The position numbers and the translations under genes are program-made. A DNA stretch of 64,000 nt from assembly GCA_031367385.1 (NCBI GenBank), contig JANLPS010000019.1:1-64000 (forward strand), read 5' to 3'. The notes under the pieces are model-generated. The model searched no databases and was not told the DNA's origin. It saw only the letters and a list, made by a program, of their open reading frames with translations. This document shows, in pieces, positions 43,489-64,000 of this stretch. The stretch comes from Archangium sp. (GTDB taxonomy: Bacteria > Myxococcota > Myxococcia > Myxococcales > Myxococcaceae). Numbering within the stretch: position 1 is the stretch's first letter; each line of letters starts with the position of its first letter.

Positions 43489-43631
43489 CCGTTCGTGCTG
43501 AGCGACTCGAAGCACCCTTCAGGTACCGGCGACGGTCGCGTGACCCGGGCTTCACCCTTCGAGAACCTCAGGATGAGCGGCCAGATTCGCACCCACTCCG
43601 TTCGCTCCTTCGAGCGCCTCAGGGTGAGCGG
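43489..43631. repeat. REP-like palindromic element (copy 2 plus a partial copy 3)
   Basis: CCGTTCGTGCTGAG…TCGAAG…CCTTCGAGAACCTCAGGATGAGCGG, then CCGTTCGCTCCTTCGAGCGCCTCAGGGTGAGCGG; same family as 6881-6956. Confidence 0.8.
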
Positions 43632-47182: not shown

Positions 47183-47256
47183 CAGGCGAAAACCCACGCA
47201 ATCATTGGCTGTAGGCGGGTGTGCGCACGCCTGAGAATTATCTTTTTCTGAGAAGG

Positions 47257-47302: not shown

Positions 47303-48622
47303 ATGAGCGTTTCATCGGTCGGGCAAGCGGGCAGCGCAGGTGAGGTCGTCGAGCTCGAGAATGACGACGCGCCCCCGGCGCCGGCGGTGGCTGACGCGGC
47401 ACCGGCCGTTCAAGAGAGCGGCTTCGACGACGCCAGGGCCCAGACGCTGGTGCTCAACCCCCAGGCGCCGCTGCTCGAGGTCGTCGATCGCTCGTCTATC
47501 GACTCCGAGGGCAAGAAGAAGGGCACCAACGACGACTCGATTGGCGATGGGCGCACCATCGGCAGCCGGCGTACTGACGTCATACCCACCATGGTTGCGA
47601 CGGGGCCCGTCGACGTCGCTGCGGTGACCGAGGGGTTGTCTGACGCCGCGAAAGAACAGGTGACCAAGCTGTTGGCCGACCCGGCGACGGCGAGCGACGC
47701 GTCGTACGCGTTCACCTCGGCGACGTTCGGCAAGCTCGAGGCTGATCAGCGCGAAAAATTCGTCGACATCATGGCGACTGGTGGCCCCCGCGCGACGCAG
47801 CTGTTGGCGATGGGGTGCGAGATCTGCGGTGACATCTCGTCTCTGCGCGCATGCGACGGGTCGACCGTGCTCGACAACCTCGACAGAATGGTGAAGCGCC
47901 CCGACCTCGCCCCCTATGTGGCCGACGTGCTGGCCGACATGGTGCTCCCGGAGCGCATCTGGCAGGGCAAGGCGCCGACCTGTACCGCGGCGACGATGCA
48001 GTTCGAGCTCGCGATGCGGCAGCCCGCCGAATTCAGCCGGCTGATGTGCGGCCTGGCGATCGACGGCTCGGTGAAAATGGCGGGCGGGGGTACGCTCGAG
48101 ACCCAGCCCGGCGCGGCGCTCAACGGCAGCATCGTCGCCGGCGACAAGCGCTCTCCGACGGAGGCGGTGTTTCAGGCCGCCCTGATGGAGTTCGCCAACG
48201 GCACCGAGACTTACGACTTCAACAAGATGCAGAGCACCACCGCGAATGGCTCTACGCACCGCGGCCTCAATGGTGATCAGATTCAAACCGCGCTCACGAA
48301 CCTCTTCAACGTGAGCTACCGCACCACCAAGACCACCACCCCCGAGGAAGCCGTTGGGGCGCTGAAAAGCCTGAGCCGGGGCGTCAGCGCCAACCGCCCG
48401 GTGCTGATCGACCTGGTGGTTGACGACACCACGAACCATTGCGTGGCCTTCGAGGGGCTCAACAATGGGCGCATTCAGCTGCGCGACCCAGAGACCGGCG
48501 AGCGTACCAGCCTCTCGACCCAAGAGTTCTTGGAGCAAGTCGCCGCAGTGCACGTCGCTCCGCTGCGGCGCGTGACCCGCAATGACCCGGTCACCGAGAA
48601 CGGGCGAATCTTCATTCAGTAA
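47303..48622 (+). CDS. Hypothetical protein with a C-terminal papain-like cysteine-peptidase fold and a disordered N-terminus
   Basis: WQGKAPTCTAATMQ (Gln, Cys), NHCVAF (His), LRDP (Asp); GGAGG RBS; no Sec signal. Confidence 0.7.
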   Translation: MSVSSVGQAGSAGEVVELENDDAPPAPAVADAAPAVQESGFDDARAQTLVLNPQAPLLEVVDRSSIDSEGKKKGTNDDSIGDGRTIGSRRTDVIPTMVATGPVDVAAVTEGLSDAAKEQVTKLLADPATASDASYAFTSATFGKLEADQREKFVDIMATGGPRATQLLAMGCEICGDISSLRACDGSTVLDNLDRMVKRPDLAPYVADVLADMVLPERIWQGKAPTCTAATMQFELAMRQPAEFSRLMCGLAIDGSVKMAGGGTLETQPGAALNGSIVAGDKRSPTEAVFQAALMEFANGTETYDFNKMQSTTANGSTHRGLNGDQIQTALTNLFNVSYRTTKTTTPEEAVGALKSLSRGVSANRPVLIDLVVDDTTNHCVAFEGLNNGRIQLRDPETGERTSLSTQEFLEQVAAVHVAPLRRVTRNDPVTENGRIFIQ

Positions 48623-48713
48623 AGAGGAGAAAAGGGACGGTCGAAGGTCGGTGGTGTCGAGCTGAGTAGGAAGAAGTTTCTCATTCTCTCTTACTCCGCG
48701 AGCCCCACCCACC

Positions 48714-50774
48714 ATGGACATTTCGGCCACCAGCAGCGTCACCCGCCCCATCGCCTCTGAAGTCGTCGACGCAGCGCCCGACACCGCGGCGACGACGGCG
48801 ACGCAGCCCGCCGACTCCAGCGCTGCGAGCAGCTTCGCCACCGCCAAAGACGTGCCGGTGGTGCTCGACGCGCAGGCAGACGCGCTGACCGTGTCGGCCG
48901 ATTCGCCCAGCTACCGGGTCTCGTGCTCGGGAGGCACCTTGATCGCGACTGGTGATGCGCAACCGGGGCAAAGCCAGGGCGCCAAAGACGCGTACGCCAC
49001 GATGCAGTTCACCGAGACCCACGTCGAGTCGAAAGAATACCAGGCGCTCACCTGGGCCTTCGACGGCGCGCCCGACAAGCAGCTGGCCACCCAGGTCAAG
49101 GCCGACGCGCTGGCGTACCTCGAGAAGACGCCGGGCCTCAAAGACGCGTGTGACGCGGCGGTCGTCGCGTGTGGTGCGGTGCCCTCGAAAGTCGAAGGCT
49201 TCAAAGTCGACTTCGCGCTCAATCACTTCGAGAACGTCGGCGCCGCGAAGGGCCTGAAGTGGGGTGAGACCGAGAAGCAGGTCAAAGACATGCTGAAGAC
49301 GAGCCGGGCAGAGGCTGCCGAGAAGAAGATCACGGTGCTCGACACCAAGGGTGGCAACGGCCAGAAGATCAGCGGCTACGTGGTCGCGAACGATCGCAAG
49401 GTCGTCAACATGGACGGCTCGAACAACACCATCGACATGTGCAGCGTGCCGTTCCCCCGGCCCTCGGGGCACTCCGATGCGATTCTCGGTGGCAATCACA
49501 ACTCGGGTCAGGTCGACATGGTCGGCACCGTGCTGATCAGGGCCGGCAGCGAAAACACGTGGACGGTGAAAGACCCCTCGCAGCGCCCCGCGCTGAACCC
49601 TCCCGCGACCGAGGTGGCCGGGTTGATCAAGCCCGAGCTTGCCGCCGCCGCCAAGAAATCGAGCATCGTGCTCGAGGGCAACTCGGCTGACTGGTCGGTG
49701 CTCGCCAACGGCGCGACCGCGACCTACACGAATACCAAGACCAAGACCTCGGTGTGCATACCCGCCGGGGCGCAAGGCCAGGTCTCGTACGCAGCCTCCT
49801 CGGCGCTCGACAAGATGGCGGCTGACCTGAAGGCCGGCGTGAAGCCAGCCGAGGTCTCGGTGTGCCTCGACCCGAACACCATCACCAAGCCCAAGCCGAA
49901 GACGGTGACGCCTCCCACCGACGGAGGCCCTGAGCCGACCAGCACGCCGGTCACGAGCAAGCCCGGGCCGGCCGTTGAGTCGCAGCCAGAGCTGAGCGCC
50001 TCATTCGACCAACTGTTGTCGTCGGTGCCCCCGAAGATGGCGAAGCGGTTAATCTTGGCGTGGCTCAAGAAAATGGGCATCACGCCGAACCCTGACGGCA
50101 CGCTGGCCTCATTGAAAGAGCAGCTGGCGGGCCTCATGAAGAGCGTCGGCCCAGCGAAGGCGGCGATCATCGAGAACTCGATTCGCCGCGAGGCCAAGAA
50201 AGAAATGGCCATGCTGCCCAAGTCGCCAGAGAAGCTGCTCCAGCCCTTGAGCAAAGCGCCGGTCAGCACCACCGCGACGACGCCCACCACCACCTCGAAG
50301 ACCTCGCCCTTCTACGACCCCTACGCGATGGCCGGCCAGCCGACGACCGAGCAGCTGGTGGCGGCGCAGGCGAAGGCCAACCTCGAGCCAGACCCGGTGA
50401 AGCGCGCGGCGATGCTGCAGACCATCGATGGTGTCTATGAGTCGAAGAAGCAGCACGCGGTCGCGGCGCAGATCGAACAACGCGCGCAGCAAGACAGCGC
50501 CGCGAGAGACATGTGCGGCACTGAAAAAGAGCGAAGCCGTCAGCTGATGACCGACAACGGGCTCAACTCCGCGGCGATCAACCAGGCGATGACGTTGATC
50601 GACGAGCAGTTCCTCGCCGCGAAGATCAACGCGATGGAGCACGGCGTGCCGTTCACCTCGTTCAAGTCGACCGCGGCTGAAGACGCGATCGCCCACGCCC
50701 TGCAGGTGATGCACGCCGACATGGCCCAGACCGGCATCACCGCCGAAGCGTGGATGGCGCGGCAACGCGGGTAG
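48714..50774 (+). CDS. Hypothetical protein with Ser/Thr/Ala-rich N-terminus and Pro/Thr linkers
   Basis: 686 aa ORF with host-like codon usage; no Sec signal; no recognised domain. Confidence 0.75.
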   Translation: MDISATSSVTRPIASEVVDAAPDTAATTATQPADSSAASSFATAKDVPVVLDAQADALTVSADSPSYRVSCSGGTLIATGDAQPGQSQGAKDAYATMQFTETHVESKEYQALTWAFDGAPDKQLATQVKADALAYLEKTPGLKDACDAAVVACGAVPSKVEGFKVDFALNHFENVGAAKGLKWGETEKQVKDMLKTSRAEAAEKKITVLDTKGGNGQKISGYVVANDRKVVNMDGSNNTIDMCSVPFPRPSGHSDAILGGNHNSGQVDMVGTVLIRAGSENTWTVKDPSQRPALNPPATEVAGLIKPELAAAAKKSSIVLEGNSADWSVLANGATATYTNTKTKTSVCIPAGAQGQVSYAASSALDKMAADLKAGVKPAEVSVCLDPNTITKPKPKTVTPPTDGGPEPTSTPVTSKPGPAVESQPELSASFDQLLSSVPPKMAKRLILAWLKKMGITPNPDGTLASLKEQLAGLMKSVGPAKAAIIENSIRREAKKEMAMLPKSPEKLLQPLSKAPVSTTATTPTTTSKTSPFYDPYAMAGQPTTEQLVAAQAKANLEPDPVKRAAMLQTIDGVYESKKQHAVAAQIEQRAQQDSAARDMCGTEKERSRQLMTDNGLNSAAINQAMTLIDEQFLAAKINAMEHGVPFTSFKSTAAEDAIAHALQVMHADMAQTGITAEAWMARQRG

Positions 50775-50850
50775 GCGGGTATGGGACGATCGGTGGTCGG
50801 CGGGTTCGAGTGAAGAGAAGCCCCTTTCATCTTCGCCAGAGGTCGCCCCC

Positions 50851-52212
50851 ATGAAGCTCGCCAGCGCAGCGCTTGTTCTGATGATGGCGACGAGCTGTGA
50901 CTTCGGCGCCGCCATGGTCATCACCACCGATTTCGAGGGAGCGACCGACGCTGGTCGCCGATTCGCCGATGGTGGTGTGCGCGCCGACGCCGGTGCGGGC
51001 GTGGCGGTGCTCGATGCAGGCAGGCGGCCCCAGGTCGACGCGGGCGAGCCAGGGTGTTTTCGCGACGCCGATTGCCGACCGAATTTTCACTGCAAGGGCA
51101 ATGGCGAGTTCGCGGGCGAATGCATCGCCGACCCCGGTACGTGCACCCACACCACCTGTGGCACCTCGTGCGGCACCGTCGCTGACGTCTGCGGCGGTAC
51201 CATTGCGTGCGGCGCGTGCGCCTGCGTGAAGGGCATTTGCGGCAGCTCGTGCGGCGAAATCTCAGACGGGTGCGGCGGCACGCTCGACTGCGGCACCTGC
51301 AACGCCTGCGTCCCGCTCTCCTGTGGCGCCTCGTGCGGCACCATTCCAAATGGGTGTGGGCGACACCTCGACTGTGGCGCGTGCCCCACCTGCTCGGCCA
51401 CCATCGGTAACTACCGCAGCCACACCAGCAACGAAGAATTCATCGACCCTCCGACGGCCGTGGGCGCGCCGGGGCCGATCAGCGGGTTCTCGGCATTGAG
51501 CTCACCAGTGCCAGTCGGAGCCACCACCATCGCGCTGAGCGGGTCGGTGCCGAACGCGCAGACCTGCTGCTGGCAAGTCGAAGGCGCGGCGGGTGGGCTC
51601 ACCACCGGCTCGGTGGCTCCAGGGGTTGACGGCGCGATCTCAGCGACGCTGCCGATCTTCTGCGGCAAGAACACGGTGCGTTTGGTCTGCGGCAACGGCG
51701 CCGGCTCGCGGGTGCTCATTCGCGAGCTCGATGCCCCCTGTCAGCCCAAAGACCTGCGCGTCACCCTCGGGTGGGACGATCAAGGCACCGACATGGAGCT
51801 GCACCTGGTTCGCGACCACGGGCACGTCAATACGGAGCTCGATTGCACCTGGTACACCTGCGTGAACCGCAACATCGGCTGGAGCGCGACGCCGGCCTCG
51901 AACCCGATCAAAGACGTCGATGACGTGACTTACGACGGGCCAGAGAACATCTACCTCGACACCGCAGCGCCCGGCACCTACCACGTGTTGGTCGAATACT
52001 GGGGCAGCGGCGCACCCTCGAAGAACACCATCACCGTCGCGGTTAAAGAGAAGACCGTCGGGTCGATCAGCAGAACGCTGCAAGTGCATGAGGTGTGGTA
52101 CGTCGGCACCGTAACTTTCCCCAGTGGCGCGATTGCGGCGGTCGACACCGTGACCGACTGCGCCGCCAGCTGGCGAAAAACGACGCATGGCTGTGATTTG
52201 ACGCTGCCGTAG
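50851..52212 (+). CDS. Lipoprotein with Cys-rich repeats and a C-terminal DUF2135/YfaP-like domain
   Basis: Lipobox ATSC; DAG linkers; LRVTLGWD…DMELHL…GPENI…GTYHVLVEYW. Confidence 0.8.
   Translation: MKLASAALVLMMATSCDFGAAMVITTDFEGATDAGRRFADGGVRADAGAGVAVLDAGRRPQVDAGEPGCFRDADCRPNFHCKGNGEFAGECIADPGTCTHTTCGTSCGTVADVCGGTIACGACACVKGICGSSCGEISDGCGGTLDCGTCNACVPLSCGASCGTIPNGCGRHLDCGACPTCSATIGNYRSHTSNEEFIDPPTAVGAPGPISGFSALSSPVPVGATTIALSGSVPNAQTCCWQVEGAAGGLTTGSVAPGVDGAISATLPIFCGKNTVRLVCGNGAGSRVLIRELDAPCQPKDLRVTLGWDDQGTDMELHLVRDHGHVNTELDCTWYTCVNRNIGWSATPASNPIKDVDDVTYDGPENIYLDTAAPGTYHVLVEYWGSGAPSKNTITVAVKEKTVGSISRTLQVHEVWYVGTVTFPSGAIAAVDTVTDCAASWRKTTHGCDLTLP
51142..51393 (+). repeat. Three tandem ~28-aa Cys-rich coding repeats
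   Basis: CGTSCGTVADVCGGTIACGAC / CGSSCGEISDGCGGTLDCGTC / CGASCGTIPNGCGRHLDCGAC. Confidence 0.8.
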
Positions 52213-52330: not shown

Positions 52331-53050
52331 GTGACCCCCCGGCTCCTCTTCGCTTGCCTGGCATTGGTGACGGCCTCGGGCTGCATCACCGTGTACCAGC
52401 CCTTGGTGTCGCTGCAGCGGCCCTTCGCGGTCGACCCCGAGTTGGCCAACTTCGAGGGCCAGAACATCTTGGTGCGCTGCGTGCCCGGCGACTACGTCGA
52501 GCTGCCCGATGCGCAGCAACTCTGTCAGCAGATGCGCGAGCTCTACGAAGCGCAGAGCGCGAAGGTCGAGACCGATGTACCGCGAAAGAACACGGGGTTT
52601 CTGACCACCAAGTTCAAGCCTGATCTGATCGTCGAGCTGCGCGGCCGGCTCTTGAAACGGGAGACCAGCAATTTTCTGATCAACCTGCTCTTTTTGGCCT
52701 CGGCGTCGCTGATACCCACGACCGAAGAGATCGAGATCGCGCAAGACGTGATCATTCGCGACGCGAGCGGCTTTCAGTTGGCGCAAGACTCGCTGCAGGC
52801 GCGCTTCGTGCGGCAGTACGGGCTGGGCGTGTGGGGCGTCAACGCGCTGGTCGATCTGATCGTGCGACCCAAGAATCAGAAGATCACCGGAGACGGCTAC
52901 CGGAGGGATTTCAGCGCGGATTTTTACGGTCACCTGAGCGAGCTCGCGTTTCATGCCCGCATGCGCTCGGCGATCATGCATGAGTTTGATCAGCCGTTGA
53001 CCGTCGCGCCCCCTGCTTCGACGGCCCCTGTGCCGAAGGCCAAGCCGTGA
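52331..53050 (+). CDS. Lipoprotein; gene 1 of the putative motor operon
   Basis: Lipobox ASGC; internal hydrophobic hairpin LINLLFLASASLIP; GTG start inferred. Confidence 0.75.
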   Translation: MTPRLLFACLALVTASGCITVYQPLVSLQRPFAVDPELANFEGQNILVRCVPGDYVELPDAQQLCQQMRELYEAQSAKVETDVPRKNTGFLTTKFKPDLIVELRGRLLKRETSNFLINLLFLASASLIPTTEEIEIAQDVIIRDASGFQLAQDSLQARFVRQYGLGVWGVNALVDLIVRPKNQKITGDGYRRDFSADFYGHLSELAFHARMRSAIMHEFDQPLTVAPPASTAPVPKAKP

Positions 53051-53676
53051 AGCTGCTGCCGATGGCCCTGGTGTTGAGCGGCTGCGCCTACGACCCGTCA
53101 CCCGGCTTGTCACACACGCGCCGTGAAGCACGAAACTTCGAGTGCCAACGCCTGGGGCAAGAAGAGGCCCACGACCGGTACCCGGGCGACATACCACCGG
53201 TGCCGCCGCGGCAGATGGCGCAGGCGATGACCGAAGCGCTGGTGTGCGAGCCGCGCTTCATTTCAATCGATGATCGCGCCCCGCGTGACGAGGCGATCTT
53301 GTCGACCCTTCGCCGTGATGTCGGGGCACTGACCGAGCTTGCCAGCACCCTCACTCCGGGAGCGCTGGTCTGGCACGTCGATGCGTTTTACCCGGAGCAG
53401 GCGGTGGCCTCGAAGATCTCAATCGCCGCGAAGACCGAGCTGTTCGAGCGCGGCCGCGCGGTGTCAGACCGCGTACCGACCCTGGCCGCCGGAGACATCT
53501 CGGTGCTCAGCCGGCTGCCTCCCAACCAGGCCTATGCGACCGCCTGCACGCGCTATTTCGCGGAGCACGTCTTGGGCGAGCACGACGTTTTTCTCGGGCT
53601 GATGGTGGTCGACCCCCGAGAGACCCAGCTGCACGCGGGCGTCTGCCAGGCCGGCAAGTGGCGGTGGGTGCAATGA
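53047..53676 (+). CDS. Lipoprotein; motor operon gene 2
   Basis: MKLLPMALVLSGC lipobox; GTGA overlap. Confidence 0.8.
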   Translation: MKLLPMALVLSGCAYDPSPGLSHTRREARNFECQRLGQEEAHDRYPGDIPPVPPRQMAQAMTEALVCEPRFISIDDRAPRDEAILSTLRRDVGALTELASTLTPGALVWHVDAFYPEQAVASKISIAAKTELFERGRAVSDRVPTLAAGDISVLSRLPPNQAYATACTRYFAEHVLGEHDVFLGLMVVDPRETQLHAGVCQAGKWRWVQ

Positions 53677-54863
53677 AGCGCGCTCTCTTGGCAATGCTGG
53701 TGTCATCGGTCGCCTTCGCCAACCCCGACCCCAAGACGCCCGACGCGCAGCGAGCGCAGATCGAAGCCGTGCGTGCAGAGATCGCCGCGCAAATTCAACT
53801 GCAAGCCTACGACCTCATCGACGAGCTGGTCTTCGAGTGGCTGCAGAACCCACCCTTTGGCGTGGCCACCCCGCTGGTGTTGGCCGACGTCGGAGTGCCG
53901 GTCAGCTTCGGCAGTGGCCTGCAGGCGCTGATCGAAAATCACCTCACCTCAGTCGTGCTCAAGAACCCGCGCTCGAACGTCGTGCTGACCCACTGCCCGG
54001 CGTGCACCGCGATGGTGGTGCACTCTGGCGCGAAGGGCACGGTGGTCTCGCGCGGGGTCGATTCACCCGAGGCGTTGGCCGAAGCCGGCACCGCCGCACA
54101 AAGCAAGCATGCGTTGTTTCTCGACTTCGAGGTCGAGGGCAGCGCGATGGTCTTGCGCGTGCGAATCACCTCGCTCGAGCCTTCGTTGCCCATCGTCTAC
54201 GCGAAGACGCTGACCACCTCGACCGGCAGCGCCGCCTTGCTGCGTACCGGAGATCGTCTGAAGAGCGCCGCCGACGCGCGCAAAGAATACACCGACATTC
54301 TCGAGAACCGCAGCACCTGGACGATACCGATCAAAGTCGGCGTGAAGACCTACCCGCCGGGCTTTCAAAGCATCCCCGCGCCCCCATTCATTTGGATCAG
54401 CGGGGGCGTCGAGGCGGGCTTCAACCAGGCGCGCGCGTGGTTGGCGAGCTTCTCGGTGGGGGTGAGCTGGGCACCGCAGTCGCACACCGCGTGGTCGGCC
54501 CAAGCGCGCGTCGCCCGGCTGCTCACCGGTACGGTCAGCTCGCTCACGCACCCAGATCTGTACTTCTTTCTCGGCGCGTCGATCGTCTCGGTCTACGGCA
54601 ACTCAGCCCTGTTGTTCTCAGACGATGACGTGAGCATCGACGAGCTCACCAGAATCATCACCAACAACCCCAACCAGACCCCGTCGCGCACGTTCGGCGC
54701 GTTTCAAATCGGCCTCGAGCTTCGGGTGAAGAACCGCATCGGCGTCGGCGTCTACCTCGAGACGATACCCGCGCTGGCCAGTGACAGAAACATCGGCAAC
54801 TACCTGAACCTGGGCCTGCTTCGTTTTCAGACCTTCGGTGCCGAGGTGTCGTTTTGCTTCTGA
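53673..54863 (+). CDS. Secreted protein with CsgG/FlgO/TolB_N-like domain (CPAC) and C-terminal beta-barrel-like region; operon gene 3
   Basis: Signal peptide ending VAFA; HCPAC; amphipathic strands ending FGAEVSFCF with terminal Phe; ATGA overlap. Confidence 0.75.
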   Translation: MKRALLAMLVSSVAFANPDPKTPDAQRAQIEAVRAEIAAQIQLQAYDLIDELVFEWLQNPPFGVATPLVLADVGVPVSFGSGLQALIENHLTSVVLKNPRSNVVLTHCPACTAMVVHSGAKGTVVSRGVDSPEALAEAGTAAQSKHALFLDFEVEGSAMVLRVRITSLEPSLPIVYAKTLTTSTGSAALLRTGDRLKSAADARKEYTDILENRSTWTIPIKVGVKTYPPGFQSIPAPPFIWISGGVEAGFNQARAWLASFSVGVSWAPQSHTAWSAQARVARLLTGTVSSLTHPDLYFFLGASIVSVYGNSALLFSDDDVSIDELTRIITNNPNQTPSRTFGAFQIGLELRVKNRIGVGVYLETIPALASDRNIGNYLNLGLLRFQTFGAEVSFCF

Positions 54864-55834
54864 ACGTTCGGTTGATCTGTGTGTCGGCGCTGGTCCTCGC
54901 TCCGGCGGTGGCCCAGGCGCAACGCGAGATCACCCGCAATGCGTTGCTGCGCTTCGAAGAGACCATGTCGCTGCGCCGCGAAGAAGGGGCGCGCGAGGTC
55001 AAAGAGCTGCTGCCGGCGATCGTGATCAGCGTCACGCCCGCGTTCGAACAGACCCGGGCCTGGTACCCGACCGCCGCCCTGGCCTCGCTGGTGCACGTCT
55101 TCGGAGCCCCCTCGTTGCGCTCGTGCGAGGCCTGCATGGCGCCCCATGCGTACATCGCGAATGGCCGCTTCGAGCAGTCGTCGACCGCGTTGACCGCGGC
55201 CGAAATCACCCGGCTCGATGCGCTGGCGAGAGGTAAGAGCGCTCCCGCGCGAATCGCGATCTGGCTCGACGAAACGACCGAAGGGGTCTCGCTCAAGGTC
55301 ATCGACTTGCAGAACAGCCGCATCGTGATGGCCCAGAACTTCGACCCGAGCTTGAGCGAGCAGGCCCGCACCACCAAGGGGCAGACCTTCGCCGAAGAGC
55401 TCGACCGCCGGCAGCGCGGAGACAGCCTCACCCACACCTTCATCGACGTGGCGCTCTACCCGGGGCAGCACATCTCGCTCGACTGGGCCGAGCAGTGGGG
55501 CGACACCAACGCGAACCTGTCGGGCGTTTCGCTCTCGCTCTTCGACCCCGTGCTGGGCGTTGGCGCCGAATATTTTCGCGTCATACCGCAAGCGTTGAAC
55601 CTGATGGTCGGCGCGAAGGTCTTGCTCAGCGTGCCCACGGCGTTGATTCAAGCCATCGCTGGGTCGAGAGGCCAGGTGCCGACCTTGTTCGACCCGATCA
55701 TCACCGGCGTGTTCATGGTGCGCCTGCCCATCGCCAGCTCGAATTACGGCGTCATTCTCTCGGTCTCGACCAACGGCCGTGTCGGCCTTGGCTTCTCGTT
55801 GATGAACCTCTCATTGCTACCCTTCTTGCCATGA
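54854..55834 (+). CDS. Secreted protein with CsgG/FlgO-like domain (CEAC) and C-terminal beta-strand region; operon gene 4
   Basis: Signal peptide ending AQA; SCEAC; VSLKVIDLQNSRIVMAQ; amphipathic C-terminal strands. Confidence 0.75.
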   Translation: MLLNVRLICVSALVLAPAVAQAQREITRNALLRFEETMSLRREEGAREVKELLPAIVISVTPAFEQTRAWYPTAALASLVHVFGAPSLRSCEACMAPHAYIANGRFEQSSTALTAAEITRLDALARGKSAPARIAIWLDETTEGVSLKVIDLQNSRIVMAQNFDPSLSEQARTTKGQTFAEELDRRQRGDSLTHTFIDVALYPGQHISLDWAEQWGDTNANLSGVSLSLFDPVLGVGAEYFRVIPQALNLMVGAKVLLSVPTALIQAIAGSRGQVPTLFDPIITGVFMVRLPIASSNYGVILSVSTNGRVGLGFSLMNLSLLPFLP

Positions 55835-56466
55835 ACCGACTCCTGCTTTTCACCGTGGCGGCGATGTGCGCCTCTGGCTGCGCGGCACGAAATTACACCT
55901 ACTTTCTGGTCGACCCGAACCCGCAGCGGCACCCTGCGCTCAAAGAAGAGGGCACGCTGATGCGGCCCTTCGCGTACGGCTCGACCACCGTGATGAAGGT
56001 CAGGTGGAACGACGGCAACCTGATCACCGAGGTCGACGTGCCGGTGATGGCCTCGGGTCAGCGAATCGTGATCGAGCACGGCGCGGGCAGCAGCGAGGTG
56101 AAGACGATACCGGCGATGCGGGTGGTGCCTCCGACGCCGACGCCGGCTGACACGGCGTTGATCGAGGCGTACCGCGCGCGTGGGTTGCGCATCAACGAAG
56201 ACGCACCCGACGTGAGCATCATTCGCGCCCGCACCGAGATGCAAGACGCGATCAAGACCGGCAACTACCAGATCGCCCTCGAGTGGGCCGAGACGGTGCT
56301 GCAGCGCTACAAGTCGCACCCCGAATTCTTACGAGCCAAGGCCTCGCTGCTGTTGATGATGGGCGAGCGCGACAAGGCGATTGAAGTGTACGAGCAGGTC
56401 GAGGGCATCGAGAGCGACCCTGCTGTTCGAAAGAAACTCGAAGAGCTGCAACGCCAGCAGAAGTAG
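55831..56466 (+). CDS. Lipoprotein with C-terminal TPR; operon gene 5
   Basis: Lipobox ASGC; GNYQIAL…HPEFLRAKASLLLMMGERDKAIEVYEQ TPR pattern; ATGA overlap. Confidence 0.8.
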   Translation: MNRLLLFTVAAMCASGCAARNYTYFLVDPNPQRHPALKEEGTLMRPFAYGSTTVMKVRWNDGNLITEVDVPVMASGQRIVIEHGAGSSEVKTIPAMRVVPPTPTPADTALIEAYRARGLRINEDAPDVSIIRARTEMQDAIKTGNYQIALEWAETVLQRYKSHPEFLRAKASLLLMMGERDKAIEVYEQVEGIESDPAVRKKLEELQRQQK

Positions 56467-56476
56467 GAGAAACGTC

Positions 56477-57187
56477 ATGCAGATCATTGGTCTCGTCATG
56501 TTGGGGTTCATCGTGTGGTTCGGGTTCACCGACCGCACTGGCAGCGGCGTCATCTCGGCGTTCGACTCGCACGCATTCGTGATGGTGCTGGTCGGCTCGG
56601 CTGCGGCGGTGATGGTCAGCTCGACCGGCAAGACCGCCTTGCGCACGATCACCGCGCTGCGAGAATTGATCCCCGGGTTTCGGCTCTTTGGGCGGGTCAC
56701 TTCGGCGATGGAGGCCGAGCGTGAAGCGGTCTGCGCGGCCTGGCGAGAAGGCAAGCGCAGCCAGGCGTTGGCCATCGCCGAGCGCAGCACCTACCCGGCG
56801 GTGAAGCAGGTCGCCGAGCTGCTGCTCACTCGCTCACCCGCGGTCGCCAGCGCGAAGGTGTTTCTCGAATTGCGTCACGGCGAGATCAGCTTCTGGCAGC
56901 CGCCGATCAACAACTGGGAGATGCTCTCGAAGCTCGGCCCCTCGTTCGGCATGGTCGGTACCATCACCGGCATGATTCAGCTCTTTCGAAACATGAGCTC
57001 AGACAATTTGAACATCGGCGCGGCAATGTCACTCGCGTTGCTGGCCACCTTGTACGGAGTCGCATTCGGCGCCGGCGTCGCCGCCCCCATCGGGCACTAC
57101 TTGAACGGCTTGCTCGACGAGCGGCTCGGGTTTCTCGAGCGCTGCGAAACCAGCGTCAATGAGCTCGTCGCCCGCGGAGCCATCTAA
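56477..57187 (+). CDS. motA: MotA/PomA-type stator subunit in a non-flagellar context
   Basis: N-terminal TMs with FDSHAFVMVLVGS; GPSFGMVGTITGMI; IGAAMSLALLATLYG; AGGAGA RBS. Confidence 0.88.
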   Translation: MQIIGLVMLGFIVWFGFTDRTGSGVISAFDSHAFVMVLVGSAAAVMVSSTGKTALRTITALRELIPGFRLFGRVTSAMEAEREAVCAAWREGKRSQALAIAERSTYPAVKQVAELLLTRSPAVASAKVFLELRHGEISFWQPPINNWEMLSKLGPSFGMVGTITGMIQLFRNMSSDNLNIGAAMSLALLATLYGVAFGAGVAAPIGHYLNGLLDERLGFLERCETSVNELVARGAI

Positions 57188-57190
57188 CCC

Positions 57191-57814
57191 ATGCAACGCC
57201 GCAAGATGGGCAATGAGGAAGGGTGGCTGCTCAGCTACGCCGACCTGATCACCAACTTGCTCTTGTTCTTCGTCGTGCTGCTCACCGCCGCGAACTTGAG
57301 CAAGGGGCGCATGCAACAGATTGCCAAGAGCATCTCGGGGCAAGAGAGCCCGCAGAGCCTCGAGTCGATGCGCAAAGAAATCGACGCGCAGATTCAAAAG
57401 CAGAAGCTGCAGGAGCTCGTCGCGACCACCGTCTCTGAAGCGGGCCTCGAATTGTCACTCAATTCGGGCCTGGTGTTCGACTCTGGCAAGGCCGCGATTC
57501 GCCCCGAGCTCGAGCAGACCATCAACGCGATGCTCACCACGCTGACCCCCTACTCCTCGAAGTACCAATTCGCGGTCGAGGGCCATACCGACCCGACGCC
57601 AATCAACGGCGGGGCCTTCGCCAGCAACTGGGAGCTCTCGAGCGCACGCGCCATCGTGGTGCGGCAACGGCTCGAAGACGTCGGCATCTCGCGCGGCCGG
57701 GTTCGCGTCGAAGGGTACGCCGATACGAAGCCGTTGCCTGAAGAGCAGCTCAAAGGGTTGACCCCTGAAGAACGCATGGCCCGGCTCCGCCGCGTCGTGG
57801 TGAGGATCTACTGA
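57191..57814 (+). CDS. motB: MotB/PomB-type stator subunit with OmpA-like peptidoglycan-binding domain
   Basis: WLLSYADLITNLLLFFV with the conserved Asp; LVFDSGKA; VEGHTD; NWELSSARA; GYADTKP; RRVV. Confidence 0.92.
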   Translation: MQRRKMGNEEGWLLSYADLITNLLLFFVVLLTAANLSKGRMQQIAKSISGQESPQSLESMRKEIDAQIQKQKLQELVATTVSEAGLELSLNSGLVFDSGKAAIRPELEQTINAMLTTLTPYSSKYQFAVEGHTDPTPINGGAFASNWELSSARAIVVRQRLEDVGISRGRVRVEGYADTKPLPEEQLKGLTPEERMARLRRVVVRIY

Positions 57815-59646
57815 TGCGTCTGTTTCTGATCAGCACCCTGGTGTCTCTCACCGCGCTCGCGCAGACCGCGACGCAGCCCGCGCCGATACCGGGCAAGCAC
57901 ATCCCCGCTCCGGTGTTGATGGAGCTGCGGGCACTCGAGAATCAATTCGACCTCTCGCTTGGCCGCGACTGCGCGCCTGAGAAGTGCATCTCGAAGGGGT
58001 GCGTGTATCAAGACCACGCGGTCGTCGACATGCCGCGCAACGCATCGCTGCCAGGCCTGGGTCAAACCGAAGGCCCGGGCAGCGTGCCGATTCAGGAGTA
58101 CCTGACCGTCGCGCACTGTGACTTCGCGCACGAGAAGTCGGTGTCGCCGCGTGATGTGGCCGCGTTGGTGAAGCGCCTCGAGCAGCGCCTGGCCAAGGGC
58201 TGGCTGCAGGTCACCGTGGGTCACCAGATTCTCGAGCCGATCTCCGAGAGCCTGCGTGACTCGCCGCCTCCGCCGCCGGTCGTCGAGCCGGTGAAGCCGA
58301 AAGAGCCCGTGGCCGCACCACCGCCTCCCCCAAAGTGGGACGCCGAGGTCGCGCTGCGAGAGCTGTGGGTGGCCCTGTTGCCCCACTTCTCGTGGATGGC
58401 GGCGATCGGGTTGCTCACCGCGGCGACGTTGATGATCATCTGGGCCCTGCGGCGGCTGGGCAGCCAGACCCTCGAAGAGAAGGCGATGCTCGCGCAGCTC
58501 AACGCGGGCACCTTGACGGGTGCTCCGGCGGCTGAAGACCCGGCCGAGAAGAAAGAAGAAGAGGCGAAGACCGATGGTCTCTCGCTCGAAGATCAAGCCA
58601 ATGCGGCCTTCGTGGCCGAGCAACATACCCAGTGGGGTTCACGCTTCGACAAGGCCGATCTCGCCAAAGACGACAGCGTGGTGGTCGAGCTGTTGCGCGA
58701 GTGGCTCAGGGCCGGCGAGTTTCCCCTGCTGGCGAAGGCGATCTTCACCTTTGGCGATCGCCTCTCGGTCGCCTTCCCCTCCGACGGGGAGTACGCGGTG
58801 CGCAAGGTCGAGTTCGCCGAATATCTGCGCTCACTCGACCGCACGATGCTGCCTTCAGACTCAGCCTTTTATCGGCAGCTGAGCCAACACGCGATCGCGG
58901 CCTCGCTGAACGCCCAATCTGACGCAGGCATTTATCTCAGCCTTCGAGAAGAGTTCGGCAGCGCGGGCATCGCGAGCTTGATCGAGCGGCTGCCCGAGCG
59001 TCACGGTGCGCTGCTCTTCGGCCTGGTGCCCTCTGACGTGCAAGACGAGGTCGCCCGAGCGCTGCCCGCCGACGTGCGGCTCGAGACGGCCCGTCAGCTG
59101 TTGCTCACCAACCGCATCTCTCGAGAAGAGCGCGGTCACTTGTTCGAGGCCATCGACGCGGCGCGGGCTGGGCTGGCGCTGCCGCTGACTCCGCCGGCGA
59201 GTGACAACGACGTCATCGACCGTGGCCGCGAGTTCGACGCCGCCGGCGCGCTGTCGATGCTGCTGCCTTTCATCGACGCAAAAGACCGCCGGTCGCTCTT
59301 TCTCACCGCGTACCAGCGCTCGAACGGCGCGTTGCCGCACTGGTACGAGAGCATTCTGTACCCCGACATGCTGCTCAAGGTGCCCAGCGAACTGCAGGCC
59401 GACATGCTCCTCGAGGTCGACGTCAAAGGCCTGGCGGGCTGGTCATCGTTGCAGTCGCCGGCCTGGCAAGAGCACTTCTTGGCGGCCTTAAGCCCGTCAT
59501 TGCAGAACGCGCTGCGGGCCAGCATGGCGTTTCGCTCGCGGGCCGATCAGCTCAACGCCGCCCGAAAAGGCCAAGCCGAGTTGGTCGCCTCGGTGAAGAA
59601 GCTCGTCACGCAAGGCAAGGTCACCTTCTCTGAGATCGTGGCCTGA
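57814..59646 (+). CDS. Membrane-anchored FliG-like protein: signal peptide, FliF-RBM3-like periplasmic domain, TM helix, FliG_M-like and FliG_C-like domains
   Basis: C-terminus LLEVD…EHFLAALS…LR…Q.ELV..VKKL…GKV aligns by eye with FliG_C; IASLIERLPERHGALL…LPADVRLE resembles FliG_M; TGATG overlap with motB. Confidence 0.72.
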   Translation: MRLFLISTLVSLTALAQTATQPAPIPGKHIPAPVLMELRALENQFDLSLGRDCAPEKCISKGCVYQDHAVVDMPRNASLPGLGQTEGPGSVPIQEYLTVAHCDFAHEKSVSPRDVAALVKRLEQRLAKGWLQVTVGHQILEPISESLRDSPPPPPVVEPVKPKEPVAAPPPPPKWDAEVALRELWVALLPHFSWMAAIGLLTAATLMIIWALRRLGSQTLEEKAMLAQLNAGTLTGAPAAEDPAEKKEEEAKTDGLSLEDQANAAFVAEQHTQWGSRFDKADLAKDDSVVVELLREWLRAGEFPLLAKAIFTFGDRLSVAFPSDGEYAVRKVEFAEYLRSLDRTMLPSDSAFYRQLSQHAIAASLNAQSDAGIYLSLREEFGSAGIASLIERLPERHGALLFGLVPSDVQDEVARALPADVRLETARQLLLTNRISREERGHLFEAIDAARAGLALPLTPPASDNDVIDRGREFDAAGALSMLLPFIDAKDRRSLFLTAYQRSNGALPHWYESILYPDMLLKVPSELQADMLLEVDVKGLAGWSSLQSPAWQEHFLAALSPSLQNALRASMAFRSRADQLNAARKGQAELVASVKKLVTQGKVTFSEIVA

Positions 59647-59693
59647 ACGTGGTTCGACGGGCTCACCGTGAGAGTCACGGGCACAGGCGCACC

Positions 59694-61700
59694 ATGAGAG
59701 TTGCGGTTCTCGCGCTGCTCTTCGCGGCTTGCGAAAAAGTGCCCATCGTCGACATCGGAGCGACCTTTTCACTCTCCGATGCGACCTGGTTTCAAGACGA
59801 AGAGACCCTGTTCATTTTCTACCGGGTCGAAGCCCTGCAGGGCCTGGGGCCGAAGAGCCAGATCGAGGTCACCTACCGCACCGACGACCTCGAGCAGCCG
59901 TGGGCGAACATCGCTGATCTGCCCGCGGTGCATACCCACCTGCCGGTGAGCTGTGGTCAGTACATGCTGTGTGGCAGCACCAGCCTTCACGTCAAGACCG
60001 TGCCACGCGATGTCGGCATTCGGCTGCGCTACCACCATGACGGCTCACTCGCGGCCGAGTCGACCGTGACCTTCAACGTCGTGGGCTCAGGCCCAGCGCA
60101 CCTGAGCCGGAGCCTGCTGATCTACGGCGTGTTCGATGCCACCAACACCCACGTGCAGTGGCGCGCGCGACACCAATTTCCGACCTTGCGAAATCAGCAG
60201 GTTCAAGACCTGGGGCTGCGACGATTTTTTCGCGTCGAGACCCCGAGCGTGGGTGACCTGCAGGGCCAAATCGACGGCAACCCGTACGCCTACGCCTTCG
60301 CGCGCAGGTGCCCCGACCACTTCATACCTCTGGGTTGGGCCGTGGCCGCCACCACGACCCGCGCCATCTTCGCGGCCGAGAGCGTGCCGGTCACCGCCTT
60401 CGACGCGCCAGTCATCTGCGGTGAATCGACAGTGACCGACGCCAAGGGCACCTTCAGCGCCGCGGCCCTCGCGCAGAAGAACCCTCAGACCCGGGCCGCG
60501 TTTCCCTCGCTGCGCAGCCCGATCACCGAGAACACCCCGATTGGTTTTTCAATCGAGCCTTGCGAGCGCACCATCGACGCGGCTGAGCTGGCGATGCAGA
60601 AGCAGCGGCTGCAGTTGGTTGGGGCTCCAATCATCTGCAACGACCACTGGCAAGACCCGGCCTTCGTTGACCGCGTGGTATCGACCCTTCGCACCGCCAT
60701 CGACGGCGTGCGCACCGGCGGCAAAGACATGGTGCTCTCACTGGCCGTTCATCACGACGACACCACCGGCCAGTTTCAAGCCACGGTCGAAAAGGCCCTC
60801 GCGCAGATCTTGCCGTTCGAGCGCGAGAAGAGCTCCCCCCGCCTCAGCGGGGCGTTCGTCTTCGACACCGTCGCGCACCTGGTGTCTGACAAGGCGGTCG
60901 CGCGCTTGGCGCTCTGGTGCCCGTCGAACATCGCGGCGGTCGACCTCGATACCGTGAGCAACGCGTCGCTGCGCTCCTGCCCGGTGTTGCCCGACATCCC
61001 TGATCTCATTCTCGGGCCGATCAAGCTGAGCAGCTTGCCAATCTTGCCGACCCGCGCCCAGTTCGACACCTTCATCGCGAAGTACTCGGCCCAGCTGACC
61101 GGCAGCGTCACCCAGATTCACTACCTCGCCCCAGAGCGCACGCCGACGTCGGCCAACATCCCCATCGGTGACTTCGGCGTGGTGACCTTCTTCAACAATG
61201 AGTCGTTCGCCGCCGCGGCGACCGATGCCTTCTCGTTCTGCACCACTGAAGATTCACGCGTCAGCTTCATCGCGGTGCGGGTCGCCGATTTTCCCAACAA
61301 CCCGTTTCCCCTCTCGACGTTGCCCGACTTTCACTCGCAGATGCCGCGCGACACCTACCAACTGGGCATCGGGTGGGACTTTCCGTTTCTGTTGCGGCTC
61401 GAGTACCAGGTGGTGCTGGCCGGGGCGGCGTCGGCCTTTTCGGTCTCGGTGCCTTTCGGCATCGGCGCGCCCAGCAAGGGGTACTACGGCGCCCAGCTGT
61501 GGGAAACCGGCGAGATACCGCTGACCGACGCCCTCACCCAGTGCACGCGCTTCTGTGACCTGCCGACCTTCGATTCTGCCGGCGTCTACAACGTGAGCTC
61601 GCACTTCCGCTCCACCTACGGGCATCAGTGCTACCGCCCGGCGTACCCAGTGTTCGACGCGGCCCACATTGGCGAGGGGGGGTTCCCGCTTGATCCTTAG
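59694..61700 (+). CDS. Large Cys-containing lipoprotein; operon gene 9
   Basis: MRVAVLALLFAAC lipobox; 668 aa; many Cys; no recognised domain. Confidence 0.8.
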   Translation: MRVAVLALLFAACEKVPIVDIGATFSLSDATWFQDEETLFIFYRVEALQGLGPKSQIEVTYRTDDLEQPWANIADLPAVHTHLPVSCGQYMLCGSTSLHVKTVPRDVGIRLRYHHDGSLAAESTVTFNVVGSGPAHLSRSLLIYGVFDATNTHVQWRARHQFPTLRNQQVQDLGLRRFFRVETPSVGDLQGQIDGNPYAYAFARRCPDHFIPLGWAVAATTTRAIFAAESVPVTAFDAPVICGESTVTDAKGTFSAAALAQKNPQTRAAFPSLRSPITENTPIGFSIEPCERTIDAAELAMQKQRLQLVGAPIICNDHWQDPAFVDRVVSTLRTAIDGVRTGGKDMVLSLAVHHDDTTGQFQATVEKALAQILPFEREKSSPRLSGAFVFDTVAHLVSDKAVARLALWCPSNIAAVDLDTVSNASLRSCPVLPDIPDLILGPIKLSSLPILPTRAQFDTFIAKYSAQLTGSVTQIHYLAPERTPTSANIPIGDFGVVTFFNNESFAAAATDAFSFCTTEDSRVSFIAVRVADFPNNPFPLSTLPDFHSQMPRDTYQLGIGWDFPFLLRLEYQVVLAGAASAFSVSVPFGIGAPSKGYYGAQLWETGEIPLTDALTQCTRFCDLPTFDSAGVYNVSSHFRSTYGHQCYRPAYPVFDAAHIGEGGFPLDP

Positions 61701-62457
61701 CGTCCTCCTGATGGTGGCGTTGTCGGTCGACCCCCCGCCTCCTCCAGACGACACCTCGCTGACTTCGCAACGCACCGCCTTCGACGCGTTGACCGAGCGC
61801 GCCCTGGGCACCGCTTCACGCGCCGTGCGCTTCGACTGGAGACGCACCACCGTCGGCTTCGGCGTTTCTTCGAGCATCGTGCTCGACCTCAACAATTTCT
61901 CGAGCGGCCGCGTCGGAGGCTTCGCGCGAATACCGGCCGGGAGCTTTTTGATCGAGCTCGCCATCACCCGGGTCATCAGCTGGGGCAGCGCCAGCTCGTA
62001 CCAGCTCTCATTGACCCCCTACCGGCAGTACGGCCGACCGAGCCGGGTGGAGCTCGACCTCAACGTCAGCTACCCGCTCTTCGAGGGCGTCGCGACGGCG
62101 AAGCTGGGCTTCATCCCCGCGGCGCAGTTCGTGTTTTCAATCACCGCGGGCCTTCGGTACCTCTACTACCCAGGCTCGCTCTCGAAGATGACGGCGCCCC
62201 AAGTCGCTGGTGCGCTCTTCGCCCCGAACCTGGGAGAAACCGAGGTCGCCAACATGGAGCCCCAGCTCTTGCCGAGCATGCAGATCGATCGCGGCCGGTA
62301 CCAAGTGATGGCTGGGTTCTCGCTCGACGTGTTCTTTCAGCCGGGTCTGTTCGTGACCCCCCGGGTGCTGCTGGGCATACCCGTCACCACGCTTGGCAAC
62401 GGGCAGGGCGTTGGCCTGTGGTGGGAGCTCAGCCTGCTGGCCGGGTGGCAGTTGTGA
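61690..62457 (+). CDS. Predicted outer-membrane beta-barrel protein; operon gene 10
   Basis: Hydrophobic signal; alternating amphipathic strands; C-terminal strand WWELSLLAGWQL; TTG start overlaps the previous gene. Confidence 0.7.
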   Translation: MILSVLLMVALSVDPPPPPDDTSLTSQRTAFDALTERALGTASRAVRFDWRRTTVGFGVSSSIVLDLNNFSSGRVGGFARIPAGSFLIELAITRVISWGSASSYQLSLTPYRQYGRPSRVELDLNVSYPLFEGVATAKLGFIPAAQFVFSITAGLRYLYYPGSLSKMTAPQVAGALFAPNLGETEVANMEPQLLPSMQIDRGRYQVMAGFSLDVFFQPGLFVTPRVLLGIPVTTLGNGQGVGLWWELSLLAGWQL

Positions 62458-64000
62458 CCGGAGCGCTGGGGCTCGCGGTGATGCTCTGCGCGCTGACGGT
62501 CTCGGCGCAATCGACCGACTTGCAGCCCACCGTTTTTTACAATGCGCGCATGGCACTGCGTGAAGGCGAGCCCGCGGAGTCGCTCAAGTTGTGGCTCTTG
62601 CGAAACAGCATCGTCGACCAGGGCATCGCGCCCAGCAATGACACCGATTTTCACTCGGTGCTGTGGGTCGCGCTCGGAGACCTGGGGCTGTGCCAAGACG
62701 GCATCGCCAAAGACGAGCACGGCGGCGCGGGGCTCTGGCCGCTCGCGATGCACAACTGGGTGCTGACCTCGGTGGCAAAGGGCGGGCCCGTCGACAACCC
62801 GTCACCCTTCGATGCGTTCGAAGCCGGGCTGCAGCAGCGCTTCATCTCGCTGCATGACGTGCTCTCGAGCGAAGAGCTGCGTTCGGCGAGCTTCTTTCGA
62901 ACCAACTGCTGGGCGCCGCAGGTGGTGATGCTCGATCAGGGCCAGCCCGTCGTCACTGAGCTGACTGATCGCCTCGTCTCGGGCCCCTTCTTGAAGTCAC
63001 TGCTCGAGCGCGCGCTGCGAACGATGTCGAAGACCAAGGTGCAGAATCGGGCGATTCTCGAAGCACGGTTGTTCGATCTCGACCTGGCGATGGCGGCGCT
63101 GCTCGAGCGGCAAGCCGCACAGCTTGCCCAGCAGCGAGCCCAAGATGCCCGCGGCGCCGGGGCCTCGGAGCGAGCGGTCAAAGACCTCGAGACCCGAACC
63201 AGGCGATGGTCGGTCACCACCAAGCAGGCCGAGTTTCTTCGTCGAGCGCTGACCTGGCCGGTGCGCGATTGGCTGGTGCTAAGCCAACCCCGGCGACTCT
63301 CGTTGTTCGCGCAGGCACGGGCGGTCTCGAATGACGAGCACCCCGGTGACCCGCAGCCCTTCGAGGCGTTGCTGTTGGGCCTCATCGACGAGCTGATCGA
63401 GCGAAAAGCCGGCGCTGAGCTCGAGCTGTGGCTTGGGTGGCTCGACGCCAGCAAGGTCACCTCGCGACGCCAAGCGCTGATCACCGGAGAGCGCGGCAAA
63501 CGAATTCTCGAGCTCGACGCCGAGTCTGGCTTTCGCGAGCGCTCGGTGATTGCGCTGCACCGCGGGCTGGCGTTTCTCGAAGCGGGCGACATGCGTGAAG
63601 CGTTGATTTCGTTCGCCTTTGCGATGGCCCACGCCGAGAGCTCGCGCGAGCCCACCGTCACCATGTCGCTGGCACGTCGCTGGGTCTCGTACGTACTGGC
63701 GCGCTACGAGGCGACCGACGAGGTCATCGCCACGCTGAAGGCCTTGGTACCCTCGCAAGAGTACAACTCGGTCGTCGAAGACTTGATCTGGCGCGCGGCG
63801 CTCAACGCCGATTTGCCATCGTTCAATCGATTGATGGCGACGACCCGGCGTGGAGGCTCGTTCGATGCGCGGGCCATTCGCCTCAGGCTCCTCGCGCAAG
63901 GCAACGCCGGAGCGTTGGCCACCCAGCTTCGAGACGCGGTGAAAGAAGAACCGTTCTTCACCGTTCGCTTCGTTCGGCAGGTCATCGAAAAGCTCGAGGC
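62454..64000 (+). CDS. Large secreted, mainly helical protein truncated by the window edge; operon gene 11 (absent from the ORF track)
   Basis: GTGA overlap; reads MTGALGLAVMLCALTVSAQSTDLQPTVFYNARMALREG…LWLLRN…GLCQDG…GLWPLAMHNW; frame appears open to the end. Confidence 0.8.
   Translation, partial: MTGALGLAVMLCALTVSAQSTDLQPTVFYNARMALREGEPAESLKLWLLRNSIVDQGIAPSNDTDFHSVLWVALGDLGLCQDGIAKDEHGGAGLWPLAMHNWVLTSVAKGGPVDNPSPFDAFEAGLQQRFISLHDVLSSEELRSASFFRTNCWAPQVVMLDQGQPVVTELTDRLVSGPFLKSLLERALRTMSKTKVQNRAILEARLFDLDLAMAALLERQAAQLAQQRAQDARGAGASERAVKDLETRTRRWSVTTKQAEFLRRALTWPVRDWLVLSQPRRLSLFAQARAVSNDEHPGDPQPFEALLLGLIDELIERKAGAELELWLGWLDASKVTSRRQALITGERGKRILELDAESGFRERSVIALHRGLAFLEAGDMREALISFAFAMAHAESSREPTVTMSLARRWVSYVLARYEATDEVIATLKALVPSQEYNSVVEDLIWRAALNADLPSFNRLMATTRRGGSFDARAIRLRLLAQGNAGALATQLRDAVKEEPFFTVRFVRQVIEKLE

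Follow-up and report, generated by a model that had tools for sequence, protein, structure and literature searches.

The window analysed here, a stretch of 64,000 nucleotides from Archangium sp., covers positions 1-64,000 of contig C379 of the source genome G000, which is 98% complete. From 52331 to 64000, the list of open reading frames (ORFs) contains 11 ORFs running in one direction; the last of these, g11, continues past the end of the window on G000:C379, and a twelfth gene lies just beyond. These genes, which we label g1-g5, motA, motB, X and g9-g12 (Table 1), encode the flagellar-type stator proteins MotA and MotB, a membrane protein (X) homologous to the flagellar rotor protein FliG, and nine envelope partners. 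To our knowledge, FliG has been treated as a flagellum-specific rotor. No description of such a 12-gene system was found in the full-text literature, in which subscription journals are mostly uncovered.

A preliminary description of the window had claimed at least 11 co-directional, tightly packed genes. There are 12 in all, and 10 of the 11 junctions overlap or have gaps of at most 10 bases when TTG 61690 is taken as the start of g10, the one exception being the 47-base gap between X and g9. The motA start codon is ATG 56477. The G+C content is flat across the window (0.62-0.68), and the gene after g12, an unrelated oxidoreductase-like ORF, starts at 65051.

Table 1. Genes of the operon, with positions in the window unless a contig is given
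Gene	Product	Position	Strand	Basis
g1	Lipoprotein, no known family (239 aa)	52331..53050	+	Lipobox Cys18
g2	Lipoprotein, no known family (209 aa)	53047..53676	+	Lipobox Cys13
g3	TolB-N/LpoB-like alpha/beta domain with CxxC and C-terminal 8-stranded OmpA-type barrel (396 aa)	53673..54863	+	AlphaFold, Foldseek
g4	g3 paralogue (N-terminal CxxC domain); putative C-terminal barrel (326 aa)	54854..55834	+	hhalign
g5	TPR lipoprotein (211 aa)	55831..56466	+	Sub-cut-off TPR matches, lipobox Cys17
motA	MotA, flagellar-type stator subunit, own clade (236 aa)	56477..57187	+	Profile, tree, residues
motB	MotB, short (207 aa): transmembrane Asp18, plug, OmpA-like peptidoglycan-binding domain	57191..57814	+	Pfam, residue count
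X	Rotor-like protein, FliG N/M/C homologue	57814..59646	+	Profile, hhalign, model
g9	Large Cys-rich lipoprotein, no known family (668 aa)	59694..61700	+	Lipobox Cys13
g10	Probable outer-membrane beta-barrel (255 aa)	61690..62457	+	Sequence pattern alone
g11	Secreted, probably helical scaffold (640 aa)	62454..64000, on to 64376	+	
g12	Basic N-tail, one transmembrane helix, Pro-rich linker, two-Cys domain (210 aa)	G000:C379:64373-65005		

The stator pair and the rotor-like protein X

The MotA of the window matches MotA_ExbB in Pfam (E 1e-13), and its profile retrieved 10 PDB sequences, all 10 of which are MotA/PomA (best E 5e-15). The best NCBIfam matches of MotA and MotB are the flagellar MotA/MotB models, all below cut-offs. 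In a FastTree tree of 79 rows that included 21 operon MotA and 7 ExbB/TolQ-type proteins from the same genome, the operon MotA group in a single clade (0.96). A long branch (0.80) separates the flagellar-type side, where this clade lies, from the 7 ExbB/TolQ-type proteins; the operon MotA are not nested among flagellar MotA, and the base of the tree is unresolved. MotB matches MotB_plug (E 1.6e-13) and OmpA (E 2e-14) and is the sole MotB_plug match in its genome. The available part of PMC12505986 lists a plug and an OmpA-like peptidoglycan-binding domain as traits of flagellar-type stators and places stators with a plug and a peptidoglycan anchor in a flagellar clade. The proton-binding Asp18 of MotB is present in 76/76 homologues, and MotA Pro155, Thr162 and Pro204 are present in 73/73. 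Pfam, PDB profile and tree, together with the X profile described below, thus bear out the claim that a flagellar-type MotA and MotB directly precede a FliG-like membrane protein.

X has a probable signal peptide, a periplasmic domain at about residues 25-145 with four invariant Cys, a Pro-rich linker, one transmembrane helix (191-213) and, at about 283-610, a homologue of the N, M and C domains of FliG. By itself, X gave just weak FliG_C (E 0.015) and MgtE_N matches in Pfam, and neither single-sequence Pfam and NCBIfam scans nor the first narrow X profiles (A1, A2) gave a significant match to FliG, which needed distant members in the profile. With 55 diverse homologues, the X profile matches FliG structures over the M and C domains (E 3.5e-10), and its hhalign comparison with 24 flagellar FliG extends across 304 columns, N-domain included, at 96.6% (E 4.9e-10). 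Structural similarity of the 57814-59646 product to FliG had been set beforehand as a test: in the AlphaFold model (pLDDT 85), FliG fills the top 12 Foldseek rows and the top 12 VIA rows, and the isolated C-domain superimposes on FliG with an rmsd of 2.3 over 88 residues. Judged by profile and model, X is a true FliG homologue, and a highly divergent one (about 15% identity).

The modelled topology of the X N-domain, alpha-beta-loop-beta-alpha-beta, is the ring-building topology of FliF RBM3. The domain aligns to FliF RBM3 in 7bk0 231-438 (Z 8.0, rmsd 4.0, 102 residues) and in 8z5v (Z 8.5, rmsd 3.5, 94 residues), and its best named match in Atlas is YscJ_FliF_C (0.84), a lead only. When residues 24-150 were modelled in four copies, head-to-tail packing was predicted with a score of 0.62, against 0.00 for the best control; the same mark was met by 20 of 30 solved one-chain pairs and by 1 of 23 monomers, a calibration outside which four copies fall. 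The runs agree in at least 88% of contacts with a pLDDT of at least 78, and the predicted interface is centred on Arg121, which is invariant in 55/55 homologues. These models make an RBM3 ancestry of the domain, and ring formation by X, likely. The preliminary description of X as a fused FliF/FliG-like rotor therefore stands in its FliG part, where all three domains are recovered by profile and fold, and is narrower in its FliF part: full FliF has RBM1-RBM2-RBM3 between two transmembrane helices, whereas the FliF part of X is one RBM3-like periplasmic domain and one transmembrane helix, supported by the fold and by related proteins and not by direct sequence similarity.

Conservation of the block and its independence of flagellar genes

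The X profile retrieved 63 loci in GTDB genomes, from Archangium, Hyalangium, Cystobacter, Myxococcaceae, Polyangia, Bradymonadia and Silvanigrellaceae; none of the 63 named loci is from Myxococcus or Corallococcus. All 12 genes stand in the order of the window at 33 of these loci, and the remaining 30 are contiguous in-order subsets, 29 of which end near the edge of the fetched DNA. At one locus (L023:1-4468), g5-g9 are present and g1-g4 absent although 4 kb of upstream sequence is there. Flanking ORFs are shared by at most 4 loci, so that the flanks are unconserved. Within the phylum of the window, 76 of 401 genomes match X, 62 strongly and 14 weakly; the 14 weak, partial matches were dropped before counting, and the 62 strong genomes are the carrier set used below. 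One of the dropped genomes, G353, turned out to hold an operon of the sister type described below. Because the distribution is patchy, with 62 carriers among the 401 genomes and whole genera at 0/32 and 0/21, the operon is not the core gliding motor.

In a second phylum, the Bdellovibrio-related one that includes the Silvanigrellaceae genome, 31 of 131 genomes match, and 20 distant loci were fetched from it. Seven of them keep the gene order of the window, 10 have motAB divergent (head-to-head) and directly upstream of the block, and 3, in which g5 adjoins X, are too short to show motAB. The rearranged loci are L116-L122, L126, L129 and L130; in most of these, and also in L128, X and g9 are separated by a gene for an additional lipoprotein (about 245 aa). 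The strongest genomic indication that motAB serves the block is that the two remain together after rearrangement, and the predicted conservation of the block as a unit is borne out by these two sets of loci.

Conservation also bears on the view that the block is a decaying relic of an old flagellar locus. It would account for the divergence of the FliG homologue and for the loss of torque charges discussed below. Against it, gene order is intact across two phyla, every pair for which dN/dS could be computed has a value under 1 (0.02-0.75, among 6-8 pairs per gene), the catalytic Asp is invariant and the nine partner genes have no flagellar match. One carrier, with a two-contig genome, has X in two pieces (G388:C2:2427562-2429437), which may reflect a frameshift or a sequencing error. 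We regard a relic, already largely refuted by conservation, as scarcely credible.

Partial FliG matches beside MotB plugs led to two related operon types, which resemble the 12-gene block in that a membrane-anchored FliG homologue adjoins motA/motB and a TPR protein, and differ from it in having fewer partners. The sister type (L183, L185) consists of a TPR protein, motA, motB and an X-like FliG fusion whose homology to X spans 491 columns (hhalign 99.3%) and which has 103 homologues, some named Aggregicoccus, Archangium and Cystobacter; for the N-domain alone, the bridge through these proteins is weak (X-sister 1.6%, sister-FliF 7%). Two Archangium species are among the matches of both the sister type and the 12-gene type, and L183 (G105:C23:56000-74000) additionally has genes resembling g3 (a barrel) and g12, plus two more genes upstream. 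The other type, with six loci (L178-L182, L184), combines a gene for a FliG M-C fusion with a TPR-like gene, motA and two copies of motB; the periplasmic domain of its fusion protein matches FliF RBM3 (92%, E 6e-7), and no FliG N-domain match was found in it. At L180, this operon directly follows genes for multi-CxxCH (cytochrome-like), NHL-repeat-like and barrel proteins. A further FliG-fusion protein, at L187 (G519:C50:1-2345), has at least 780 aa and apparently two tandem periplasmic ring-type domains. No description of these shorter operons with FliF-FliG fusions and MotAB was found in the literature searched. Chlorobium reportedly has a natural FliF-FliG fusion; our literature search retrieved no paper on it.

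The operon itself contains no FliM/FliN, export gate, rod, hook or flagellin, and Pfam and NCBIfam scans found neither an export gate (SctRSTUV) nor an ATPase family among the 12 genes. Inspection by eye of the 15 kb of contig left downstream likewise revealed no flagellar gene; a conventional flagellar set there would have spoken for a different assignment. The genome of the window has no flagellin and no rod/hook C-terminal domain. It has one FHIPEP hit (C45:5032-7056) and one FliM-like hit, both on other contigs than the operon; at G000:C61:17466-24759 an SctJ-like gene is followed by that for a 466-aa protein with a FliG_C match, with the FliM-like gene nearby. We read these genes as a needleless myxobacterial type III system, a system without MotAB according to the available part of PMC3459982.

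These data allow the possibility to be weighed that the operon provides accessory stator or rotor parts for a flagellum or for the needleless type III system of myxobacteria, which we consider very improbable. Flagellin is present in 30 of the 62 carriers, 60 of the 62 have a FliM-like match, mostly in frames of about 480 aa that we read as SctQ, and in G246, a member of the family of the window, the operon lies about 16 kb from an apparently complete flagellar cluster (L067-L068; G246:C39:10000-50000). However, inspection of the translations in that cluster identifies motA, motB, fliF and fliG of its own, and the other 32 carriers are without flagellin, including four single-contig genomes of 12-13 Mb that also lack FliF_C and rod/hook domains; FliF_C was absent in 5/5 near-finished carriers and rod/hook domains in 5/5 tested carriers. 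Likewise, five of five tested carriers from the second phylum have one YscJ/FliF match each, in frames of 537-542 aa (the length of flagellar FliF), and no match of SctJ length, and in the genome of the window the FliG_C match adjoins the SctJ-like gene on another contig. Flagellin, absent from this genome, is present in its congener G362. The operon is independent of flagellar and type III genes, in agreement with the earlier suggestion that the block encodes a self-contained machine separate from the flagellum.

Upstream of the operon, three co-directional genes (439, 686 and 453 aa) occupy window positions 47303-52212 on the plus strand; the last, 453-aa product is probably a lipoprotein, rich in Cys and weakly matching DUF2135. 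Its gene is not conserved next to the operon, nor is the one that follows g12. On the minus strand at 43619-47197, inspection indicates a protein of 1192 aa that resembles Ser/Thr kinases, has an ATP-binding motif and carries a repeat-rich tail. Biocrust metatranscriptome contigs (two runs, one study) span 30/30 and 29/30 bins of an Archangium copy of the operon, and two soil runs span 21 and 22 bins; the contigs are mostly less than 95% alike to that copy. As there is no silent control, the coverage does not show transcription.

Envelope partners and a possible mechanism

The remaining proteins of the window had been described as lipoproteins, secreted proteins or barrels, which stands for the lipoboxes of g1, g2, g5 and g9 and for the modelled barrel of g3; barrels in g4 and g10 are suggested by sequence features. 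The lipobox Cys is conserved in at least 90% of 43 homologues of g1, in 51/51 of g5 and in 47/47 of g9. Neither g1 nor g2 has a Pfam or NCBIfam match, the TPR matches of g5 are below cut-off, and g9 has no useful match in PDB, Pfam, NCBIfam or Atlas. The AlphaFold model of g3 (pLDDT 88) combines an alpha/beta domain with an eight-stranded barrel, and Foldseek returned an OmpA barrel (E 5.5e-6), TolB (E 6.9e-6) and LpoB (E 4.7e-4), with aligned ranges not printed. g4 aligns to g3 over 78 columns (hhalign 94%, E 1.2e-7), and its CxxC is invariant in 49/49 homologues. The g10 consensus terminates in an alternating, aromatic-terminated strand and has no PDB or family match; the profiles of g3, g4, g9 and g10 found nothing among PDB sequences. 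g11 has no useful family match; of the 8 members scanned, one gave a weak TPR match. The layout of g12 is TonB-like, with a two-Cys domain that weakly resembles TonB-C and AgmX/PglI tails: both Cys are in register in the alignment, in which eight other operon profiles scored at most 2%, and NF033768 was matched (E 0.028) by 1 of 31 members scanned. The g12 profile found no other protein in its own genome. The TolB-N/LpoB-like domain and barrel of g3, and the weak TonB-C/AgmX-tail likeness of g12, are newly recognised here. None of the 12 genes was recognised as encoding an ATPase, an export gate, an enzyme or a TonB-dependent receptor.

The 12-gene block has these parts in fixed linkage, and we consider it probable that MotA/MotB and X form a flagellum-independent rotary motor that passes force across the periplasm to an outer-membrane complex. 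We infer the contact of stator and rotor, the rotation, the path across the periplasm and the output, and the self-association of X is predicted by modelling. According to this model, X would polymerise head-to-tail via its RBM3-like domain, so that one polypeptide would give both an S-ring collar and a FliG ring. By analogy with flagellar stator biology, ion flow past MotB Asp18 would turn peptidoglycan-anchored MotA pentamers (MotA5B2) geared to the FliG ring. Because FliM/FliN are absent from the operon, the ring would turn without chemotactic switching. The lipoproteins g1, g2, g5 and g9, together with the scaffold g11, may bridge to the barrels g3, g4 and g10. TolA grips TolB, and the TonB-C-like g12 could similarly grip the TolB-N-like domains of g3 and g4. 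Barrels of eight strands are too narrow for proteins to pass, and such a barrel would act here as an anchor and not as a protein channel. The likeliest output, put forward tentatively, would be mechanical work on a surface-anchored complex in adhesion, surface movement or prey contact; most of the remaining probability goes to energised outer-membrane transport or remodelling.

Several observations weigh against a rotary motor. The torque charge pairs given in the available part of PMC12505986 are R90/D288-D289 and E98/R281. In the operon MotA, the position equivalent to Glu98 is hydrophobic in 73/73 sequences, in both of the registers permitted by an uncertainty of one residue, and that equivalent to Arg90 is Arg in 54/73; in X, the columns equivalent to Asp288/Asp289 have no acidic residue among their commonest letters, and that equivalent to Arg281 is Arg in 12/55. 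The fold score of the X N-domain is tied by the tails of cation-diffusion facilitators and by ribosomal proteins (Z to 9.1), hhalign of this domain against FliF (26 rows) or the SctJ-like protein of the genome gave no significant match, and its packing score may stem from model memory of FliF-type solved rings. The likeness of g12 to TonB-C is weak (hhalign 34%, E 4e-4, against 14 AgmX/PglI-tail domains of the source genome). To these points is added the patchy distribution described above.

MotA does keep charges of its own on the same helix pair, Arg/Lys94 in 73/73 and Asp/Glu102 in 62/73, which may or may not replace the lost torque charges. MotA and X have diverged in concert, a pattern compatible with a rewired gear as well as with a non-rotating dock. 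The latter is the basis of the main rival explanation, which we judge unlikely: a static X ring would dock and unplug the stators, and MotAB, acting like ExbBD/TolQR, would pull g12 for outer-membrane transport or remodelling. The torque charges lost on both partners, the TolB-N-like domain of g3 with the TonB-C-like g12, and the absence of FliM/FliN and an axial structure from the operon are as this rival would predict. By contrast, all three FliG domains, including the C-domain that faces the stator, are under purifying selection, MotB retains the plug and peptidoglycan-binding domain (traits of flagellar-type stators in the available part of PMC12505986), and there is no TonB-dependent receptor in the block, nor are its flanks conserved.

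If the rotary reading is true, a conserved FliG-MotAB pair working without a flagellum would mean that the rotary core was put to a second use, which bears on how rotor and stator first became joined, and a three-protein motor (MotA, MotB and X) whose interface is rewired would offer a minimal system in which to study torque generation. The operon is present in cultured Archangium and Hyalangium strains and is thus experimentally accessible.

Comparison with known systems

Zorya uses a MotAB-type motor, and ZorAB is a relative of MotAB according to the available part of PMC12505986. The operon could in principle encode a Zorya-like envelope-sensing defence in which the motor signals membrane damage, and its patchy presence and unconserved flanks would suit such a role. 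However, its MotA, at 236 aa, lacks a long tail, Pfam and NCBIfam scans (made without a PADLOC search) found no nuclease, helicase or other effector domain in the 12 genes, and no defence neighbours recur; we give this explanation very little credence.

The Agl-Glt gliding machinery of Myxococcus similarly ties an ion motor to a trans-envelope periplasmic and outer-membrane complex, as described in the available part of PMC13104615, and g12 weakly resembles the AgmX/PglI tail domain. The two differ in the motor itself, which is the mobile, TolQR-type AglRQS in Agl-Glt and is of the flagellar type, with a peptidoglycan anchor and a FliG ring, in the operon. Among the 80 proteins scanned, no partner gene had any NCBIfam match over cut-off, and none matched a Glt family model. 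With the Tol-Pal and Ton systems, the operon shares a TolB-N-like periplasmic domain in g3 and, by homology, g4, as well as a single-pass, Pro-rich protein with a TonB-C-like end (g12). Unlike these systems, it has a motor that is not of the ExbB/TolQ type, a FliG ring, no TonB-dependent receptor, and a TolB-N domain fused to an 8-strand barrel.

The closest likeness is to the core of the flagellar motor. Both have MotA and MotB with a plug, a conserved Asp and an OmpA-like domain, and a full FliG homologue (N, M and C), and the order of X, in which an RBM3-like domain is followed by a transmembrane helix and FliG, is that of the FliF C terminus followed by FliG. In the operon, however, the FliF-like part is cut down to a single RBM-like domain that bears four Cys and is joined to FliG, the charge pairs are mostly lost, FliM/FliN, export gate, rod, hook and filament are missing, and nine unrelated envelope partners are added. 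The operon would work like the flagellar torque core without belonging to the flagellar motors.

Non-flagellar type III systems, including the needleless myxobacterial type, also reuse flagellar parts without a filament, as the available part of PMC3459982 describes. According to the same source, they kept the export gate and lost MotAB, whereas the operon keeps stator and rotor and has no export gate. We lean slightly toward the view that the operon represents a third flagellar offshoot, in which the stator and rotor were kept, FliF and FliG were merged into a single ring protein that assembles by itself and has a rewired stator interface, and the whole was coupled to Tol/Ton-like and barrel proteins; it would spin or pull a surface complex in predatory bacteria and would head a family of stand-alone FliG-MotAB motors.

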